Source: Escherichia phage vB_EcoP-101101UKE1
Strand: one strand, 5' to 3'
Sequence record: MZ234012.1
Length of the DNA: 44,450 nucleotides
Position numbers and translations under genes: made by a program. Every line of letters starts with the position of its first letter. The stretch's first letter is position 1. Shown one piece after another: positions 1 to 44,450 of the stretch. The notes under the pieces are model-generated. The model was not told the origin of the DNA. It ran no database searches and saw only the letters and a list, made by a program, of their open reading frames with translations.

Positions 1-924
1 ATGACTACTGAAAACATCCTCCTGTCTGTCCGTGAAGCTGCAACCGCTGAGATTAAGCAGCATTTGGATAATATCGGCACTTCTTACATCAAAGTTGGCG
101 CTTGTCTGAATGAATTACGCGGTGATTTCGAAGGTCAAAAAGACTTTTTAGCTTATGTAGAATCAGAGTTCGGCATCAAGAAAGCACAATGCTACAAGCT
201 GATGAGTGTAGCCCGTGTCTTTGAAGGAGACGAACGCTTTAAAGGTGTGGCTATGCGTGTAATGCTGGCGCTTGTTCCTTTCGCTGATGAAAATATGATC
301 ATGGAGAAGGCCGCAGAACTCGCCGCAGAGGGCAAGCTGGACACTAACGCCGTAAACGCCCTGATTGATCCTAAGAAAGAGACAAAGGCCGAGACGGTAC
401 AACCTAAGGTTGAGTCGGTAAAACCGCAGGAGAACGCGACTGAGGCCGCAGAAACTAGGCAAGGACATGCAACCTTTGAGGATTTCATATTAGAGAAGGC
501 GAAAGAGGAGCTACAAAGTGTGCCGCCAGCAAGTGAGTCGGATGACGACAAATCAGCACCGTGGGAAGAGGAAAGCAAGCCGGAAGCGCCAAAGGCCGCG
601 CCACTGGACAACACGGCTAACACCGAGAGTGCCGCTATTGCTGGCCTTCTGGCACAAATTAAAGCACTGACTGAGCAATTACAGGCAGCCAATGACCGCA
701 TCGCCTCCTTAAGTAGCGCACGCGAAAGCAAGAAGGCAGCCGCGCCTATGCTGCCGCAATTCAAATCTTCCTGCTTCTATGCTCGCTTAGGTTTAAGCGC
801 TGAGGAGGCAACGAAGAAAACAGCAGTTAACAAGGCACGCCGCGAACTGGTTAAGCTAGGCTACGGCGAAGGCCATGAAGCATGGCCCTTAATCTCTGAG
901 GCAGTAGAAGAATTAACTAAGTAA
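1..924 (+). CDS. hypothetical early protein immediately upstream of the RNA polymerase gene (307 aa; Ala/Glu-rich low-complexity middle)
   Basis: Long ORF starting at ATG 1, preceded at the end of the window (circular junction) by aaggtga spaced as an RBS. It occupies the slot that holds host-takeover genes before gene 1 in T7-like phages. No catalytic motif recognised. Confidence 0.5.
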   Translation: MTTENILLSVREAATAEIKQHLDNIGTSYIKVGACLNELRGDFEGQKDFLAYVESEFGIKKAQCYKLMSVARVFEGDERFKGVAMRVMLALVPFADENMIMEKAAELAAEGKLDTNAVNALIDPKKETKAETVQPKVESVKPQENATEAAETRQGHATFEDFILEKAKEELQSVPPASESDDDKSAPWEEESKPEAPKAAPLDNTANTESAAIAGLLAQIKALTEQLQAANDRIASLSSARESKKAAAPMLPQFKSSCFYARLGLSAEEATKKTAVNKARRELVKLGYGEGHEAWPLISEAVEELTK

Positions 925-987: not shown

Positions 988-3615
988 ATGCAAGACCTAC
1001 ACGCTATTCAACTTCAACTTGAAGAAGAAATGTTTAACGGTGGTATCCGTCGCTTTGAAGCGGACCAACAACGCCAGATTGCATCCGGTAATGAATCAGA
1101 CACGGCATGGAATCGCCGCTTATTGTCCGAGTTAATCGCGCCAATGGCTGAAGGTATTCAGGCTTATAAGGAAGAGTACGAAGGCAAGCGCGGTCGTGCA
1201 CCACGTGCATTGGCTTTCATTAACTGCGTAGAAAATGAAGTGGCAGCGTATATCACGATGAAGATCGTAATGGATATGCTTAACACTGATGTAACCTTGC
1301 AAGCTATCGCTATGAATGTAGCTGACCGCATCGAAGACCAAGTGCGCTTCAGTAAACTAGAAGGCCATGCAGCTAAATATTTTGAGAAGGTCAAGAAGTC
1401 ACTTAAGGCAAGTAAGACTAAATCATATCGCCATGCGCACAACGTAGCGGTCGTGGCTGAGAAGTCAGTAGCTGACCGTGACGCTGATTTCTCTCGCTGG
1501 GAAGCGTGGCCTAAAGATACCTTGCTACAAATTGGGATGACCTTGCTTGAAATCTTAGAGAATAGCGTATTCTTCAACGGGCAACCTGTCTTCCTCCGCA
1601 CCTTGCGCACTAATGGCGGCAAACATGGTGTTTACTACCTACAGACTAGTGAACACGTAGGTGAGTGGATAACTGCATTTAAAGAACATGTAGCGCAACT
1701 TAGTCCAGCCTATGCACCTTGCGTTATTCCTCCGCGTCCGTGGGTATCACCCTTTAACGGTGGGTTTCATACTGAGAAAGTAGCAAGCCGTATTCGTCTG
1801 GTAAAAGGCAATCGTGAGCACGTCCGCAAGCTGACCAAAAAGCAAATGCCAGCGGTTTACAAGGCTGTTAACGCTTTGCAGGCTACTAAGTGGCAGGTTA
1901 ATAAAGAGGTTTTACAGGTTGTGGAGGACGTTATACGTCTAGACCTCGGCTATGGTGTACCTTCCTTTAAACCACTCATCGACCGTGAGAACAAGCCAGC
2001 TAATCCGGTGCCGTTAGAGTTCCAGCACCTGCGAGGCCGTGAACTGAAAGAAATGCTTACGCCGGAACAATGGCAAGCCTTTATCAACTGGAAAGGTGAA
2101 TGTACTAAGCTGTACACCGCTGAAACTAAGCGCGGAAGCAAATCGGCGGCAACCGTTCGCATGGTTGGTCAGGCCCGTAAATATAGCCAGTTCGACGCAA
2201 TCTACTTCGTGTATGCACTGGACAGCCGCAGCCGTGTATACGCGCAATCTAGCACACTCTCACCGCAATCAAATGACTTGGGCAAGGCCTTGCTCCGTTT
2301 TACCGAAGGGCAGCGTCTTGATAGCGCTGAGGCGCTTAAGTGGTTTTTGGTGAACGGGGCGAATAACTGGGGTTGGGATAAGAAAACTTTTGACGTGCGC
2401 ACCGCTAACGTGCTGGATGGCGAATTTCAAGACATGTGCCGCGACATTGCAGCGGATCCGCTGACCTTCACTCAATGGGTAAATGCCGACTCCCCTTACG
2501 GCTTCCTTGCATGGTGCTTTGAATATGCGCGTTATCTGGATGCACTGGATGGAGGCACGCAAGACCAATTCATGACGCACCTCCCAGTCCATCAAGATGG
2601 TAGTTGTTCTGGTATCCAGCACTACAGTGCTATGCTACGCGATGCAGTAGGTGCGAAAGCAGTAAACCTTAAGCCCTCTGACTCTCCTCAAGATATTTAT
2701 GGTGCCGTTGCGCAGGTAGTAATTCAGAAGAATTATGCATACATGAATGCAGAGGATGCGGAAACCTTCACTTCTGGCAGCGTGACTTTAACAGGTGCGG
2801 AGCTGCGTAGTATGGCTAGTGCGTGGGATATGATAGGAATCACTCGCGGCCTGACCAAAAAGCCCGTAATGACACTACCTTATGGCAGCACACGTCTAAC
2901 CTGCCGTGAGTCAGTGATTGATTATATCGTTGATTTAGAAGAAAAAGAGGCCCAACGGGCTATTGCGGAAGGGCGTACCGCCAATCCTGTACACCCTTTT
3001 GATAATGACCGTAAGGACAGCCTGACACCTAGCGCAGCTTATAACTATATGACAGCTTTAATCTGGCCTTCTATTTCGGAAGTGGTTAAAGCTCCTATAG
3101 TGGCAATGAAAATGATTCGTCAGCTTGCACGTTTCGCAGCTAAAAGGAATGAAGGCTTAGAGTACACCTTGCCTACTGGCTTCATCTTGCAACAAAAGAT
3201 AATGGCGACAGATATGCTCCGCGTATCTACTTGCTTGATGGGAGAAATCAAGATGAGTCTACAGATTGAAACGGACGTAGTGGATGAAACGGCTATGATG
3301 GGCGCTGCTGCCCCTAACTTTGTGCACGGTCATGATGCCAGTCACCTTATCTTAACGGTCTGCGACCTTGTTGATAAAGGGATTACATCTATCGCAGTAA
3401 TTCATGATTCTTTTGGCACTCATGCAGGTCGCACCGCAGACCTACGTGATAGTCTAAGGGCAGAAATGGTGAAGATGTATCAAGGCCGTAACGCTCTGCA
3501 AAGCCTGTTAGATGAGCATGAAGAACGCTGGTTAGTAGACACCGGAATCCAAGTGCCAGAGCAAGGAGAGTTTGACCTTAACGAAATCTTAGTATCTGAC
3601 TATTGCTTCGCATAA
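988..3615 (+). CDS. single-subunit DNA-dependent RNA polymerase (T7/SP6 type), 875 aa
   Basis: RBS aggagt 7 nt upstream. Contains the motif B-like stretch [11 protein letters not shown] and motif C IHDSFGTH. Size matches SP6-type RNAPs (~875 aa). Confidence 0.95.
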
Positions 3616-39867: not shown

Positions 39868-41580
39868 ATGCTTCAAAGATTAAGTGCTTACTTGGTGAAG
39901 TACAAGAGTAAACTAACAGGTACTATTGAGCGCCTGCTATCTGATAAACTATCGGATACTATAGATGTTGCGGATTTTGGAGTTAATCCCTCTTCTAATG
40001 ACAACAGGCAAGCCCTTCAAGCTGCATTTAATGCGGTCAGATTGCTAGGCGGTGGTACTGTATCAGTCACTAAGGCTGGCGAATATAAACTAAGTGGTAC
40101 TGTTGAGATATTTGCTAATACACACTTCAAGGTTGCTAAAGGTGTAACATTTGTACGTGACTACGAAACAGGAGATACGCTATTCAGATTATCACAAGGG
40201 CAAGCTAGTAATGTAACAGTCAGTGGAGGTGTCTATGAAGGCAATGGTCACACTAAAGGAGATACACCTTTTGTAGTATTTGCATCTACTAGTAATAATG
40301 ATTTGAAGTTTGAAGGCATAATAGTTAACAATGTAGTGGACTACCACGCCATAGATTTAGCAGATTGGAACAACGTAGTTATTCGTGATTGTAAATTCCT
40401 AGGGTTTAAGAATACAGGCAGTCGTAACTTCTCAGAGGCTATACAGTTAGACCCAGGACTTATTACAGTAGGTCGCTATGTGCAGTCTAGTGGTTTACTG
40501 GTAGAGAATTGCTATGCTGGCCCAAACCTTGATTCTGGATTTGGCGGGTATGGTGCTCTAGTAGGAAATCATGCATCAGCTTATGGTGTTCAAGATAACA
40601 ACATTAGAATCCTAAATTGCACTACAGATGGTGCGCTCTTTGCAGGTGTACGTGTATTTAACTGGAAAAACTGGATAGTACGTGGTTGCACATTTAGAAA
40701 TTCTAATGCAAGAGGTGTTCATGTTACACCTGTCTCCTCTCAAACTAAACCGCAAGGAACTCGACAAGGTAGTGTTGTAGATTGTACTTTTGATGGCGTA
40801 AGAACACCAGTGCTAATTGCTGCACCATCTTGGCCTTTTACCGATATTAGTGACATTTGGCATGACCATATTGAAATTTCTAATAATACTATGATCCTCA
40901 CAGAGGATGTATCCTATGGTGTAGATGCAAGGTGGTGTAAGAATTTAATTGTAAAGGGTAATACAGGCTCTGGTGGCTTAGGGTTAATCGGTTTACGCTT
41001 TGGGACAAAATACCACATAGAAGGTAATACTTGGGAAAACGGAAGAGGTAGTGGGATTTGGTTAGGTGAGTCTGATGCTACTACATTCATTGGTACTGGA
41101 TTATCGGGCGAAGGTATACTTAGTCGTAATATCCTCTCTAAATTAGGGCAATATGGTATTCATGTAAACTGCAAGGTTGGCGGTCTAGTGATTAAGGCTA
41201 ATAATATGAAGGAAGTATCTACAGCTGAAGCAGGTAGGCACTTCATTAGCATAGACACAGGAGCTAACAACATCCTAGTAGAAGGTAATATTGGAGTAGA
41301 TGGAGAAAGCCCTAACAAGCCAAGCCTTGGTATTCGTGTTACTTCTTCTTGTTCCAATATTAAACTCATTGGCAATGATTGCTATGGTACACAGGCGCCT
41401 CAGAATAACCAAGGAGTCGGTTCTAGTACGGTGATTGTTTATGGACTAAATGGCGATCCTACAACTTTAGGCGTAGGTGCACCTGTAGGCTCTTTAGCAA
41501 CTGATATCAATGGGTCTGGTGGTAGTACATTGTACGTTAAAGAATCTGGTACATCTGCTCAAGGTTGGGTTGCAAAGTAG
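39868..41580 (+). CDS. tailspike 2: pectate-lyase-like right-handed beta-helix protein
   Basis: RBS aaaggagg. DVADFGVNPSSNDNRQALQAAFNA is typical of pectate-lyase-superfamily tailspikes, and Gly/Asn/Val-rich repeats follow. Confidence 0.75.
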   Translation: MLQRLSAYLVKYKSKLTGTIERLLSDKLSDTIDVADFGVNPSSNDNRQALQAAFNAVRLLGGGTVSVTKAGEYKLSGTVEIFANTHFKVAKGVTFVRDYETGDTLFRLSQGQASNVTVSGGVYEGNGHTKGDTPFVVFASTSNNDLKFEGIIVNNVVDYHAIDLADWNNVVIRDCKFLGFKNTGSRNFSEAIQLDPGLITVGRYVQSSGLLVENCYAGPNLDSGFGGYGALVGNHASAYGVQDNNIRILNCTTDGALFAGVRVFNWKNWIVRGCTFRNSNARGVHVTPVSSQTKPQGTRQGSVVDCTFDGVRTPVLIAAPSWPFTDISDIWHDHIEISNNTMILTEDVSYGVDARWCKNLIVKGNTGSGGLGLIGLRFGTKYHIEGNTWENGRGSGIWLGESDATTFIGTGLSGEGILSRNILSKLGQYGIHVNCKVGGLVIKANNMKEVSTAEAGRHFISIDTGANNILVEGNIGVDGESPNKPSLGIRVTSSCSNIKLIGNDCYGTQAPQNNQGVGSSTVIVYGLNGDPTTLGVGAPVGSLATDINGSGGSTLYVKESGTSAQGWVAK

Positions 41581-41589
41581 TAGGATTGC

Positions 41590-41739
41590 ATGCCAATAAT
41601 CAAATCAGTTAAGCAAAGTGCTGTACGCCAGAACACAGAAGAGCTTATTCAATCAGGCCGTGACCCTAAGCAAGCTTATGCCATTGCCAAGGATGTACAA
41701 CGTCGTGCCTTGAAGAAACCTTCTGCATCTTCTGCGTAA
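41590..41739 (+). CDS. small basic protein (49 aa)
   Basis: ORF directly after tailspike 2 with a weak RBS. Confidence 0.3.
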   Translation: MPIIKSVKQSAVRQNTEELIQSGRDPKQAYAIAKDVQRRALKKPSASSA

Positions 41740-42045
41740 GCAGGTTAATATCTTAGTGTACACAAGGGCAGACCTAGGTTTGCTCTTAGTGTATTTACAA
41801 TGGAGGTCTTATGTATATACCTATGGAAGCAATAGTAGGTTGCCTGTGTTTGTTGGTAGGCTTCATTATAGGCTTAATAGCAAACCCTTAGTGTAATCCA
41901 AGGAGGTAACATGCAAGAAGAGAATTGGGATGTGTAATATTGGGTTTGGAGGAGGTTGAACCTTAGTCCTGTACAAGGATTAACCAAAGTCAAAATTTTG
42001 ATATATGCGTGTGTCAGTTCTCTCGCCCTCGCCCTCGCCGGGTTG

Positions 42046-42066
42046 CCCCCCCCCCCCCCCCCCCCC
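42046..42066. repeat. 21-nt poly(C) homopolymer
   Basis: Uninterrupted run of 21 C, preceded by (CGCCCT)x3 and followed by TATAGGG. Confidence 0.9.
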
Positions 42067-42326
42067 TATAGGGTGGCCTGAGGGAATCCGTCTTCGACGG
42101 GCAGGGCTGATGTACTCCTTGGATAGTACAAGGGAGGCGGAGGGAACGCCTAGGACGGCCTAGGGAATGGCTTAGTGGTGGACAAGGTGATTACCTTAGT
42201 GAAGCCTCTTAGTGCATTCCTGAGGCCATTCAGGGCGTTTATGAGGGATTGACAGGGTGAATGGGTGTGGGCTATCTGTTCGTTTCGTTCACTCCGCTTG
42301 CGCTCCGTTCACTCGCTCACGTGTAC

Positions 42327-42453
42327 CTTAGGTTATTACTTGATGGATAGCTTAGGTTAACCTTAGTGGAATGCCTTAGTTAAAGACTTAGTGCTTATCT
42401 TAGTAACAGCTTAGTAGTGTACCTTAGTTGGTCTTAGTGAATAGCCTTAGTGA
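42327..42453. repeat. array of about 10 CTTAGT short repeats with 10-13-bp spacing
   Basis: CTTAG occurs at 42327, 42351, 42362, 42375, 42387, 42399, 42410, 42423, 42433 and 42446. Further copies at 42171, 42196, 42208 and between 42590 and 42775. Confidence 0.85.
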
Positions 42454-42648
42454 TTGCACATGCAAGAATGTAAGATGCCAATAGGTCGCGGTCGGTAGAC
42501 CGCTAAAGAGAGAGAATAGTAATAAGATGCAGTAGGAGGAACACCAGAAACCTAGCCAACCTAGCCTATCCTAGCTCTGTATCTATTGCTTTTCCTTAGT
42601 CTAACATGTGAGACAACCTAGATTTATCTTAGTGATGATATCTTAGTG

Positions 42649-42677
42649 TTGACAAGGCCATCTCAATATAATACTAT
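42649..42677 (+). promoter_or_regulatory. candidate sigma70 early promoter (TTGACA-17-TACTAT)
   Basis: Perfect -35 hexamer, 17-bp spacer and a good -10, upstream of the first early gene. Confidence 0.55.
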
Positions 42678-42820
42678 TCATCACGTAGGCAGCACTGAGG
42701 TGCTTAGTAGCCAGCTAGTAAGGCATACGAAGAGACTAGCGCTTACATTGCTCTTTAACAATTTGCTTAGTGTAACCTATGTATGCCGTGGTCAATTACT
42801 TATTGAATGAGGAATTAACT

Positions 42821-43000
42821 ATGACATTAAACAACCGTGAACTGTCCGTTCTCTTCACTCTGTTGTGCTACATGATTCGTAACAACGAATTACTTACAGA
42901 CGATGAGTTAGCCTTGTATCACCGCTTTCTTAACGAAGGTTGGACCGATACAGTTAATCAATACCGTAACATGATAGATGAGTTGAGGGAGGGTAAATAA
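42821..43000 (+). CDS. early hypothetical protein (59 aa)
   Basis: RBS gagga 8 nt before ATG 42821; the track ORF opens at 42779. Confidence 0.4.
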   Translation: MTLNNRELSVLFTLLCYMIRNNELLTDDELALYHRFLNEGWTDTVNQYRNMIDELREGK

Positions 43001-43224
43001 TGTATCAGCATGAGGTTTTCTTTGAGTCAGCTAGTGAAGCTATCCGCTTCCTTGAAGATATGCTACAAGCTGGCGTAGGTGTTGATGTACATCACTTCCT
43101 ACTAGATTACGACACTGAATATCACCGAGTTACCTTAGTATCTGAGTATGACAACCAAGTCATTACTGAGTACCTAGGCAGTGAAGATTACGATTACGAT
43201 GAAGTAATCACGACAAATCTCTAA
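43000..43224 (+). CDS. early acidic protein (74 aa, Asp/Glu/Tyr-rich)
   Basis: TAATG-coupled to the preceding gene, RBS gagggagg. Strong net negative charge. Confidence 0.4.
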   Translation: MYQHEVFFESASEAIRFLEDMLQAGVGVDVHHFLLDYDTEYHRVTLVSEYDNQVITEYLGSEDYDYDEVITTNL

Positions 43225-43232
43225 ATTAACTG

Positions 43233-43261
43233 TTGACAGCCACGGCATACAAGGTTACATT
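43233..43261 (+). promoter_or_regulatory. candidate sigma70 early promoter (TTGACA-17-TACATT)
   Basis: Perfect -35 hexamer with a 17-bp spacer. Confidence 0.45.
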
Positions 43262-43353
43262 AAGCATCAAGACGGCGACGTCTTTAAACATCCCGCTCTT
43301 TAACAATACGGTTTGTGTCTTGATAGGCTAACTAACTAACTAAGGTAATTATC

Positions 43354-43464
43354 ATGAAAGGTTTAATTTGTGTAGAACGTATGGTCAATGGTAAACTTGA
43401 AATATTACCACTGGAAAACCAATCTAGCTTCAAAGAGTGGTATGGCTGTTTCTCACTGATTTAA
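43354..43464 (+). CDS. early small protein (36 aa)
   Basis: ORF after the TAACTAACTAA stop cluster with a weak RBS. Confidence 0.3.
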   Translation: MKGLICVERMVNGKLEILPLENQSSFKEWYGCFSLI

Positions 43465-43614
43465 GGTAGAGGCTGGCACTAGTCAGCCTATCAAGGCGCA
43501 AACCAAGCTCTTTAACAATTTGGATAAAGCTTCTTAGTCTGGATAGGTTAAACCTAGGAGATTCTCTTGAGTCTCCTATAATGTAACCTAACTAACTAAA
43601 TGAGGATTAATAAC

Positions 43615-43968
43615 ATGGCTATGTCTAATATGACTTACTCTCAGGTTTACAACACCGCTCATGCTGCATTAGTTGAACGTATCTGGAATGATGATATTGA
43701 TTGTATCGATAACGCACATGATGCAATCCATGATGCGGCGGATAGCGCTGTACCAATCTATTATGCTGACATCTTCTCCGTGATGGCGAGTGAAGGTATT
43801 GATCACTTCTTCGAAGACTCCGGCCTGATGCCAGATACTAAGGATGTAACGGTCGTACTACAAGCCCGTATTTATGAACAACTCACCATTGATTTATGGG
43901 AACGTGTTCAAGATATGATTGTTGAGTACACCACTTACGCTGAGTATTCAGAAGAAGAGGAAGAATAA
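43615..43968 (+). CDS. ocr: Ocr-like DNA-mimic anti-restriction protein (T7 gene 0.3 homolog)
   Basis: MAMSNMTY..., [43 protein letters not shown] and [15 protein letters not shown] closely match my recollection of T7 Ocr. 117 aa with an acidic C-terminus. RBS gagga 7 nt before ATG 43615. Confidence 0.8.
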
Positions 43969-43969
43969 G

Positions 43970-44083
43970 ATGGAAAAGCTATACAACTTCATCTTTTCAG
44001 ACGGTGTAACCCTGAAGTGTTCCCTACGATTCGCACAAATTCGTGAGGAAGTACTAGGCACTACATACAAACTATTTAGCTGA
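43970..44083 (+). CDS. early small protein (37 aa)
   Basis: Begins 2 nt after the ocr stop, in the slot of T7 gene 0.4. No sequence similarity recognised. Confidence 0.3.
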   Translation: MEKLYNFIFSDGVTLKCSLRFAQIREEVLGTTYKLFS

Positions 44084-44098
44084 CACTATAAGAGAAGG
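44074..44098 (+). promoter_or_regulatory. degenerate phage-promoter-like element (ATTTAGCTGACACTATAAGAGAAGG)
   Basis: Strong resemblance to the consensus but with TATAAGAG in place of TATAGAAG. Confidence 0.3.
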
Positions 44099-44159
44099 CT
44101 TAACAAGGCGTTGCTACGGTAGCGCCTGATTAAACTTTCACTTACTAGGAGTTAAGACT

Positions 44160-44387
44160 ATGGATTTAGATAGCATCATTATGGCATTTGCTCTTATTGG
44201 CTTAAGCTGGTGCTCCTATCACCTTTACCGTGAGTTCTTATTTGATAAAGCTAAACGCAAACTAAGAAAGGAAGGCGGCAATTACCTTTGTGTAAGAGGT
44301 GGGCTTGTAGAATACATTGCACCTAACGGCACGGAATGCGCCATTAGCAAAGATGCATTTATAGAAACGTGGCATTACATCAAGTAA
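44160..44387 (+). CDS. early membrane protein (75 aa)
   Basis: RBS aggag. N-terminal TM helix IIMAFALIGLSWCSY. Confidence 0.4.
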   Translation: MDLDSIIMAFALIGLSWCSYHLYREFLFDKAKRKLRKEGGNYLCVRGGLVEYIAPNGTECAISKDAFIETWHYIK

Positions 44388-44421
44388 CTAGCCTATAGTC
44401 TACCTGAGTGGGCTATGTGAT

Positions 44422-44446
44422 ATTTACTTACACTATATAAGGTGAC
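44422..44446 (+). promoter_or_regulatory. degenerate phage-promoter-like element (ATTTACTTACACTATATAAGGTGAC)
   Basis: Partial match to the consensus, immediately upstream (across the circular junction) of the ORF at 1. Confidence 0.25.
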
Positions 44447-44450
44447 TATT

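Follow-up and report, generated by a model that had tools for sequence, protein, structure and literature searches.

Genes 1 to 5 of phages K1-5 and K1E have been annotated since 2004-06, and Ocr was already labelled among them. Ocr is annotated in many GenBank records of K1-5-like phages, so that finding it once more is in itself of little weight, and its small neighbors have been hypothetical proteins since these genomes were first sequenced. For rrn operons, earlier work describes RNase III stems on either side of 16S and a model of 5′-arm delivery by boxA (PMC8632103), and the gamma-proteobacterial boxA consensus is GYTCTTTAANA (PMC5725501). We found copies of this consensus together with long-range stems in the early block of a K1-5-like phage, where both are without annotation in any record examined. 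Searching the literature for a prior account of boxA and stems in SP6, K1-5, T7-like, or Autographiviridae phages returned nothing relevant; the SP6 (Dobbins 2004) and K1-5 (Scholl 2004) genome papers may hold one. Our main reading, to which we give a probability of about 0.7, is that this is a class I early operon in which Ocr, conserved small genes, and exchangeable slots are organized by an RNA grammar.

The window, by which we mean the whole stretch of 44,450 nucleotides that was analyzed (Escherichia phage vB_EcoP-101101UKE1, MZ234012.1), is a circularly permuted Vectrevirus genome with 99.9% identity to phage vB-Eco-KMB47. The physical left end of the genome lies near 42020, and the RNA polymerase gene (988-3615) is downstream of the early block. 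Gene order in the window matches that of K1-5/K1E genes 1-7, and the block itself corresponds to genes 1-5. Thus, it is not a new module. The six ORFs that the original prediction had named were all found at their coordinates, and each has a Shine-Dalgarno sequence 6-9 nt 5′ of it. All features given below are on the + strand.

The ORF at 43615..43968 encodes a 117-aa Ocr of the T7-type allele in the position of K1-5 gene 3, assigned by PDB, Pfam, and PHROG homology. It had been proposed as a homolog of T7 Ocr, and the alignment check upheld this: all 117 of 117 residues align without gaps to T7 gp0.3 (PDB 1s7z), 79 of them identical (E 2.8e-42). The match to Pfam PF08684 has an E value of 2.2e-43 and scores 147 bits, with a cut-off of 25. 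By sequence counts, the protein carries 26 D/E residues (net charge -22) and T7 Ocr 34 (-28); the window protein retains acidic residues at 24 of these 34 positions and has lost 10. At least two diverged forms of Ocr exist among relatives. The distance from the physical left end to the ORF is about 1.6 kb. This is the early region, transcribed by the host, with sigma-70 promoters (P1 and P2) upstream, and Ocr belongs to the earliest genes that host promoters express at the end of the genome that enters first. As the only functionally identifiable product of the region, it would be a DNA-mimic dimer which, by homology to T7 gp0.3, would sequester type I restriction-modification enzymes before the remaining genome enters. 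By the same homology, it would probably also sequester BREX enzymes.

Two sigma-70 promoters and three boxA elements lie in this region. P1 (TTGACA-17-TACTAT, 42649..42677) has 10 of 12 consensus matches, and some 630 bp separate it from the physical left end; P2 (TTGACA-17-TACATT) is at 43233..43261. GYTCTTTAANA occurs exactly three times in 44 kb, always on the + strand and within an 800-nt early stretch, a count equaled in 0 of 100 shuffles. By consensus match, the first, GCTCTTTAACAA at 42750..42761, is a predicted rrn-type Nus-factor site, and the others are at 43295..43306 and 43507..43518. Each promoter is followed by a boxA within about 26-65 nt.

The first two boxA elements are each followed by one arm of a long-range stem, and the third and last is without such a partner. 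The type-A stem (28 pairs) joins 42764..42792, found by helix search and covariation, to 43239..43266, found by folding and covariation, and its 446-nt loop holds gp1 and gp2. The type-B stem (25 pairs) joins 43310..43334, again from helix search and covariation, to 43480..43504 (25 nt, 88% complementary) around a 145-nt loop that holds orf36. Their near-perfect-helix scores were 23.6 and 20.6, whereas the null had a mean of 9.7, a standard deviation of 1.4, and a maximum of 17.6. Both stems appeared in the minimum free energy and centroid folds of their regions (42745-43275 for type A, z -5.6; 43290-43520 for type B, z -3.5). RNAduplex energy was rejected as a stem statistic: random genome positions reach -43 kcal/mol, and the observed values were -48 and -42. 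The arrangement recurs in 46 other Molineuxvirinae loci, where 77 of 114 boxA elements are followed by such a stem and the exceptions (37/37) are all the last boxA of their locus. The spacing from boxA to stem arm has a median of 2 nt.

The loop of the type-B stem raises the question of whether orf36 (43354..43464; Shine-Dalgarno TAAGGT), a 36-aa candidate ORF in the slot between gp2 and Ocr, is a gene. The loop may instead merely separate the two arms of a processing stem, with an ORF there by chance, which we regard as possible while leaning against it. The protein has no match in PHROG or Pfam. It is 100% identical across 34 phage records, with one synonymous difference, too little variation for a selection test, so that orf36 stands as a putative gene. 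That a stem can do without a payload is seen at locus L041, where the loop is an empty 36 nt, while in L044 and L006 the same stem encloses an ORF. However, orf36 has the layout of the other cassettes, with CTAACTAACTAA all-frame stops, a Shine-Dalgarno sequence, and an ATG. Substitutions number 0-1 in the 111-nt ORF and up to 11 (L019) in 279 nt of flanking sequence. In relatives, the slot always holds an ORF of 54-70 aa, and the ORFs found in this gap (gp2.5, gp2.8, gp50) are different ones.

The other genes of the block are under purifying selection: dN/dS is 0.03-0.18 over gp1 (0.12), gp2 (0.18), Ocr (0.09), gp4 (0.03), and gp5 (0.09), each estimated from 4-10 orthologs in related phages. 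Raw pN/pS was 0.04-0.24 in the true frame and 0.6-3.8 in shifted frames of the same alignments. gp4 (K1-5 gene 4, 43970..44083, phrog_11746) has 37 aa, starts 1 nt past the Ocr stop, and is conserved across Molineuxvirinae; it is found in 135 records from six host genera, with at least 73% identity over Vectrevirus, SP6, Proteus, and Klebsiella phages. A suspected resemblance of gp4 to T7 gp0.6A was unsupported by comparison. gp5 (K1E gene 5, 44160..44387, phrog_21597) has 75 aa; residues 3-19 form a single N-terminal hydrophobic transmembrane helix (Kyte-Doolittle 1.68), after which comes a KAKRKLRK cluster. It is present in 31 records, and among relatives its slot holds one of three unrelated alternative small hydrophobic proteins, or none.

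The region around Ocr had been described as a hot spot for host-takeover and anti-defense genes. This applies to the gap between gp2 and Ocr, to the Ocr allele, and to the gp5 slot, whose content differs among relatives, but not to gp1, gp2, and gp4, which form a conserved core. The truly exchangeable units are the orf36 slot, the Ocr allele, and gp5, and these are the best candidates for counter-defense or exclusion, above the acidic gp2. From their conservation pattern and position, gp1, gp2, and gp4 may have host-takeover roles rather than roles in strain-specific counter-defense.

gp1 (K1-5 gene 1, 42821..43000, phrog_9275) is a 59-aa protein whose AlphaFold2 (AF2) model has three helices (pLDDT 80); a PDB fold search with this model returned no neighbor, with nothing below E = 1. 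The start at 42821 is common to homologs. The 73-aa gp1 of some records is probably overextended, because its ATG (42779) sits within the left arm of the type-A stem and is without a Shine-Dalgarno sequence. gp2 (K1-5 gene 2, 43000..43224, phrog_6403) is a 74-aa protein whose start overlaps the gp1 stop (TAATG). It was found in 60 records, each covering at least 80% of the query. An exhaustive profile search of 1.84 billion representatives gave 9 matches at E<=1e-3. Several of these, multi-stretch matches in long proteins, are likely spurious; P0048, P0051, and P0053, none of them annotated, are credible as distant relatives.

It had been proposed that the small neighbors of Ocr, gp2 above all but also gp1, orf36, gp4, and gp5, are candidate new anti-defense inhibitors, with gp2 as a possible second DNA mimic. 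The neighbors are early, host-transcribed, and adjoin Ocr, and the surrounding slots swap genes among relatives. With 17 D/E and 2 K/R among its 74 residues, gp2 has a net charge of about -15. That none of the neighbors has a known function also fits this proposal, and the description of them as uncharacterized was borne out: the PHROG families of the neighbors and of the relatives' cassette proteins are all of unknown function, and in a Pfam search with seven window proteins and ten of these cassette proteins, Ocr was the sole match. However, the fold predicted for gp2 offers no evidence for mimicry. The AF2 model is a compact beta-alpha-beta-beta-alpha-beta, ferredoxin-like domain (pLDDT 78 in one model, 51-55 in the other four). 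Its closest folds in the PDB are PII/CutA-type ferredoxin-like domains (E about 4e-4), and its fold matches also include uncharacterized phage proteins of about 70 aa; no known DNA mimics are among them. Furthermore, gp1, gp2, and gp4 are conserved and not accessory, and because gp2 shares this conservation it is a poor fit to a strain-specific counter-defense gene. We found no homology of gp1, gp2, orf36, gp4, gp5, or gp6 to T7 gp0.4, 0.5, 0.6A, or 0.7, and the searchable literature holds no functional data on gp1, gp2, orf36, gp4, or gp5. We therefore consider it unlikely that the neighbors are new inhibitors of this kind. In the T7 comparison, the only pairing with z>3 was gp4 with Ocr, which we judged meaningless.

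The stems could also be inverted repeats that act at the level of DNA, as module boundaries, recombination linkers, or promoter duplicates, with no function as RNA. The arms and boxA are conserved junctions of swappable cassettes, one stem exists both empty and filled, and P2 is embedded in the DNA of the type-A right arm, so that part of the conservation of that arm could reflect promoter function. In several other genera, right arms likewise hold TTGACA with a TACATT/TACACT-like -10 element, but this is not true of every bracket. Recombination linkers, however, are expected to be direct and not inverted, and each arm pair lies inside one transcription unit, directly after boxA. We examined whether pairing itself is maintained. 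For type A, 91.8% of cells were paired over 16 distinct sequences, compared with 24-41% when the arms were slid; for type B, the values were 94.3% and 27-42%. Compensatory changes were present at 11 of 20 type-B pairs, which 0 of 500 shuffles reached, although these covariation counts come from related sequences with structures taken from the window sequence, both of which inflate support. Such double changes maintain pairing in both stem families and across genera. Internal mismatches were 64 G:U and 19 A:C under symmetric scoring, and this excess of G:U points to + strand RNA and not DNA. It is thus improbable that the repeats function as DNA only.

Downstream of the last boxA, the Ocr leader is predicted to fold into a local hairpin (43530..43605, dG -30.6, z -4.15). 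Its layout aligns with T7 813-927, the stretch between boxA and gene 0.3, where the RNase III site R0.3 of T7 lies. When pairs were counted on the fold of the window sequence itself, 75% of cells were paired, compared with 28-47% in slid controls; this is moderate support, weaker than that for the other stems, and RNAalifold on a sequence-only MAFFT alignment of the leader gave no consensus structure. A predicted long-range helix between the Ocr leader and the Ocr coding sequence (dG -25 to -33) fell within the null range and was rejected. A second conserved long hairpin lies between gp4 and gp5 (44081..44154, dG -29.5, z -6.3), with compensatory changes at 8 of 9 pairs of its central stem. 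A site resembling the promoters of SP6-type phage RNA polymerases overlaps the end of gp4 (44074..44095); its recurring core, GACACTATA(G/A), has about 13 copies on the + strand genome-wide. Rfam found no known RNA family over 41500-44450 and only hairpin-like matches below threshold; these were mir-5879, on both strands at 44083-44154, and sR28.

In E. coli suhB, the Nus complex at boxA occludes the Shine-Dalgarno sequence. That the boxA copies are mainly translational or autoregulatory repressors that throttle the early genes, and not aids to antitermination or RNA folding, is the least probable alternative: they do lie 48-97 nt 5′ of start codons, but that spacing varies while the spacing to the stem arm is fixed, and they are linked to long-range stems in the manner of rrn and not to Shine-Dalgarno sequences.

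These data are consistent with the reading of the region as an operon organized at the level of RNA. The left end of this K1-5-like Vectrevirus would carry its class I (early) operon, the first DNA into the cell, transcribed by host sigma-70 RNA polymerase from P1 and P2. The proposed grammar runs from promoter to boxA, then about 2 nt, the 5′ arm of a 25-28 bp stem, the cassette, and the 3′ arm; after the last boxA, just 5′ of Ocr, a local hairpin in the layout of the T7 gene 0.3 leader would take the place of the stem. The likely roles of boxA and the stems, as read from the sequence, are Nus-factor antitermination and RNase III processing. In the first step, boxA would load NusB/E-NusA-NusG-SuhB on the host polymerase and make it Rho resistant and fast. 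A polymerase loaded in this way would aid untranslated leaders, tiny ORFs, and possibly transcription-driven entry of the genome. In the second step, boxA tethered to the polymerase would bring the 5′ arm together with its distant partner strand, a mechanism already suggested for 16S and 23S rRNA. In the third step, RNase III would cleave the duplexes, so that each cassette became an independent mRNA with paired ends. Translation of gp2 may be coupled to that of gp1, and translation of gp4 to that of Ocr. The shared boxA-plus-arm sequences would double as linkers for cassette swapping.

We further propose, tentatively and at slightly under even odds, that the coupling of boxA to a long-range stem is a previously undescribed grammar of Molineuxvirinae, in which early accessory genes sit in cassettes that imitate rrn operons, are insulated from their neighbors, and are swapped via conserved linkers, Ocr alleles included. 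If the RNA grammar is confirmed, it would mean that a lytic phage applies the strategy of the rRNA operon to mRNA cassettes, and the model of 5′-arm delivery by boxA could be tested directly on a substrate that is small and non-essential. If true, the grammar could also provide a regulatory signature with which to find early counter-defense genes that are without homologs. Among the proteins, the best candidate for a core host-takeover function is gp4, which is found throughout the subfamily and is the most strongly selected.

The early genes of K1-5, K1E, and SP6 are direct orthologs of those in the window and stand in the same order, with gp6 and the RNA polymerase next. Identity to these orthologs is 87-100% for gp1, 92% for gp2, 95-97% for gp4, and 98.7% for K1E gp5, whereas the gp5 of K1-5 differs from that of the window. 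K1E has the extra cassettes gp1.5, gp2.5, and gp2.8 where the window has orf36. For Ocr, the closer likeness is to T7: the window protein shares 68% identity with T7 Ocr, rising to 52 of 60 residues across the core (36-95), but only 44-46% with K1-5 and K1E gp3. T7 gp0.4, 0.5, 0.6, and 0.7 have no homologs in the early block of the window. The order of elements before ocr is the same in T7, with sigma-70 promoters, a GCTCTTTAACAAT boxA, a hairpin, an all-frame stop motif, and a Shine-Dalgarno sequence. However, the first 3.3 kb of T7 contain a single boxA, 5′ of gene 0.3, whereas the window phage has three, two of them tied to gene-enclosing long-range stems. To our knowledge, the RNase III sites of T7 are local hairpins only.

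As at lambda nut, a host Nus-factor boxA, here a predicted one, lies in phage early transcripts, but the window boxA fits the rrn consensus, and neither a boxB hairpin nor an N-like protein was identified. A further comparison is with the E. coli rrn operons. The phage payloads differ in being mRNA cassettes of 145-765 nt for small proteins and not rRNA, and no boxB or boxC was identified in the phage early block. The two share the exact boxA consensus, the repetition of boxA ahead of each payload, and a 5′ duplex arm placed directly 3′ of boxA with its complement past the payload.

The stretch 42000-44450 matches 104 phage records by megablast, the best being Escherichia phage vB-Eco-KMB47 (99.9% identity) and the remaining matches Vectrevirus (Autographiviridae, Molineuxvirinae; the K1-5/K1E/SP6 group). 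The window sequence is a circular permutation that begins at the 307-aa gene 5' of the RNA polymerase gene (988-3615), and the physical left end (TCTCGCCCTCGCC...) lies near 42020. Thus, the Ocr block is the left-end, host-transcribed early region. We also observed a 21-C run at 42046-42066, within the terminal repeat and ~25-45 nt from the physical end, where K1-5 and EEc4 have TCCCCA; the run reflects either hypervariability of the homopolymer or a sequencing/assembly artefact at the terminus. Short CTTAGTG / ACCTTAGTG repeats, densely arrayed at 42190-42640, separate the terminal repeat from promoter P1.

The original prediction placed six ORFs here, an Ocr homologue and its small neighbours. 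We found all six, each with a Shine-Dalgarno sequence. The proposed homology holds: Ocr (43615..43968, 117 aa) aligns end to end and ungapped with T7 gp0.3 (1s7z, E 2.8e-42) and matches Pfam ocr (2.2e-43). The two proteins are identical at 79/117 positions, 52/60 in the core (residues 36-95), and 24 of the 34 acidic positions of T7 are retained, with a net charge of -22. The block as predicted is already known. Its genes are K1-5 genes 1-5, with GenBank equivalents in K1-5 genes 1, 2, 3, 4, and 5 and K1E genes 1, 2, 3, 4, and 5; K1E gene 3 is annotated "ocr-like anti-restriction," and KMB47, EEc4, and other records list "protein Ocr."

To assess coding status, we calculated dN/dS (Nei-Gojobori) with orthologues from ten related phages and obtained 0.12 for gp1 (42821..43000, 59 aa), 0.18 for gp2 (43000..43224, 74 aa), 0.09 for Ocr, 0.03 for gp4 (43970..44083, 37 aa), and 0.09 for gp5 (44160..44387, 75 aa). 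Raw pN/pS was 0.04-0.24 in frame versus 0.6-3.8 in shifted frames. Therefore, these five are, judged by their substitution patterns, real genes. The gp1 stop overlaps the gp2 start (TAATG), and gp4 starts 1 nt past the Ocr stop. The candidate gene orf36 (43354..43464, 36 aa) is invariant in sequence across 34 records except for one synonymous change; in one related locus (L019) there were 0 differences in the 111 nt of orf36 versus 11 in 279 nt of flanks. The only orf36 match beyond enterobacterial phages, in Ralstonia phage P-PSG-11 (MN270889, 24084-24188; 48.6% identity over 35 aa, E 8e-4), lies mid-genome in an unrelated podophage and is possibly due to chance. A 73-aa gp1 starting at 42779, present in some records (e.g., EEc4), is less likely because that start lacks a Shine-Dalgarno sequence and lies inside an RNA stem arm and because the same 15 codons head another ORF (gp54) in ACG-C91. 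The 59-aa form originally predicted is the better call. The leader at 42779-42820, read as MYAVVNYLLNEELT, is conserved and in frame with gp1 in the window; it behaves as a conserved junction or leader, not as coding sequence.

As anticipated, the neighbours are uncharacterised: they have no Pfam match, and every PHROG family is of unknown function. Similarity of gp1, gp2, orf36, gp4, and gp5 to T7 gp0.4, 0.5, 0.6A, and 0.7 was not found. The acidic gp2 has 46 homologues in a collection of 5.8 billion proteins, all with at least 72% identity and all but one of 74 aa, and when 1.84 billion representatives were searched exhaustively with a profile, just a few further credible distant relatives emerged. 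Its AF2 model is a beta-alpha-beta-beta-alpha-beta domain (pLDDT 78; 1/5 models confident). Its structural neighbours are PII/CutA-type ferredoxin-like domains in the PDB (E about 4e-4) and, in BFVD, ~70-aa uncharacterised podophage proteins (Citrobacter, Pectobacterium, and Proteus phages). This predicted fold neither points to DNA mimicry nor excludes it. The gp1 model has three helices, and its search found no structural neighbour. Homologues of gp4 with at least 73% identity occur in 135 records, from phages of E. coli, Salmonella (SP6), Klebsiella, Proteus, Citrobacter, and Raoultella, and the membrane protein gp5 has a single N-terminal hydrophobic helix. At window 1-924, gp6 (307 aa, phrog_4571, no Pfam match) is acidic with a low-complexity middle; it occupies the position of the gp0.7 kinase in T7 and remains conserved throughout the subfamily, with identity as low as 31%. 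An SP6-type phage RNA polymerase promoter-like site at 44074-44095 (ATTTAGCTGACACTATAAGAGA) overlaps the last codons and stop of gp4, with a conserved hairpin directly 3' of it, and its core GACACTATAG has ~12 further copies on the + strand of the genome. This site may allow the phage enzyme to transcribe gp5, gp6, and the polymerase gene as well.

Across eleven GenBank loci that we compared, the proposed hot spot exists in the slots between genes and does not extend to gp1, gp2, gp4, and gp6, which are conserved. The slot 5' of gp1 holds additional ORFs in ACG-C91 and fTuEco01. That between gp2 and Ocr holds orf36 in the window and K1-5, gp2.5 and gp2.8 in K1E, and gp50 in ACG-C91, and is empty in P433.1. 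The gp5 slot holds the 75-aa protein in the window, a 61-62-aa signal-peptide-like protein in K1-5, and a 41-aa hydrophobic peptide in ULINTec7, and is again empty in P433.1. The Ocr gene is itself exchangeable: two diverged alleles occur among Vectreviruses (43615-43968 versus L004:1575-1907 and L005:2346-2672), and the allele in the window shares 68% identity with T7 Ocr versus only 44-46% with K1-5/K1E gp3. That the window type is nearer to T7 suggests that the allele was replaced, leader included, via recombination with T7-like phages. Klebsiella phage VLCpiA2a carries at this position an unrelated 172-aa protein (L006:4545-5063; phrog_11084, function unknown) with an N-terminal GKGSFTKCF motif, translationally coupled to the gp4 homologue 3' of its gene, which may be an alternative counter-defence gene. 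Since these are exchangeable slots among conserved genes, the counter-defence prior suits orf36, the Ocr allele, and gp5 better than the acidic gp2. That the small neighbours could be new inhibitors is speculation. The original observation is confirmed and its interpretation partly supported.

The genome contains exactly three copies of GCTCTTTAACAA (42750, 43295, and 43507; boxA #1 to #3), all of them on the + strand. [quoted passage not shown] Repeat analysis revealed a type-A stem pairing 42764-42792 (29 nt, from 2 nt past boxA #1) with 43239-43266, which has 28 pairs and one bulge and encloses gp1 and gp2. A type-B stem pairs 43310-43334 (25 nt, from 3 nt past boxA #2) with 43480-43504; it encloses orf36 and ends 2 nt 5' of boxA #3. 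Each stem closes its own cassette in both the minimum-energy and the centroid fold (z -5.6 and -3.5, respectively), and the near-perfect-helix scores of the two were 23.6 and 20.6, versus a mean of 9.7 (sd 1.4, maximum 17.6) at 150 random genome positions. boxA #3 lacks a distant partner; a local hairpin (43530-43605, z -4.15) follows it instead. The Ocr leader runs boxA, spacer, GATAGGTTA, inner hairpin, TAACCTAAC, all-frame stops, Shine-Dalgarno, ATG, and this order aligns with the T7 stretch from its boxA to gene 0.3, which presumably contains RNase III site R0.3.

We then examined 15 loci from GenBank and 35 retrieved from IMG/VR by gp6 alignment (identity down to 31%). In the 46 boxA-bearing loci that remained with the window, its near-duplicate, and T7 left out, 77 of 114 boxA copies had a stem behind them at a median distance of 2 nt (17-33 pairs, loops of 36-765 nt), and all 37 stemless copies were the last boxA of their own locus. 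The stems form two families, type A with core TGTATGCCG/CGGCATACA and type B with core YTGATAGGCT/AGCCTATCAR. In type B (17 distinct sequences), 94.3% of cells pair versus 27-42% with the partner slid, with double-sided change in 11/20 pairs; in type A (16 sequences), 91.8% pair versus 24-41%, with 30 compensatory cells. Neither level of covariation was matched by any of 500 shuffles. Internal non-Watson-Crick pairs were G:U in 64 cases versus A:C in 19 (symmetric scoring), which implicates the + strand RNA. In one locus (L041:2508-2591), the type-B stem directly 3' of a boxA closes an empty 36-nt loop, and this stem encloses an ORF in L044 and VLCpiA2a, which looks like cassette loss or gain at the hairpin loop.

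The boxA and stem elements, their geometry, and their evolutionary conservation are direct observations, and the RNA grammar of bracketed cassettes that they appear to follow is well supported computationally. We propose that boxA would bring NusB/E, NusA, NusG, and SuhB onto host polymerase and that the tethered boxA would hand the 5' arm next to it to the complement further downstream, as has been proposed for the RNase III stems flanking 16S rRNA (PMC8632103). RNase III would then cut the duplexes of at least 20 bp and free every cassette as an mRNA of its own, with paired ends, and the common boxA-plus-arm sequences could serve as linkers in cassette exchange. Host transcription draws T7-group genomes into the cell, and rrn-type complexes elongate faster; thus, Nus loading could also speed genome entry. 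Annotation of boxA or the stems was not found in the records inspected, and we found no paper in the open-access literature linking boxA to T7-like or SP6-like phages, although an earlier description is possible. This grammar is the only part of the analysis with some potential for novelty. The layout of a boxA plus a long-range stem is like that of rrn operons, and the Ocr leader is like that of T7 gene 0.3.
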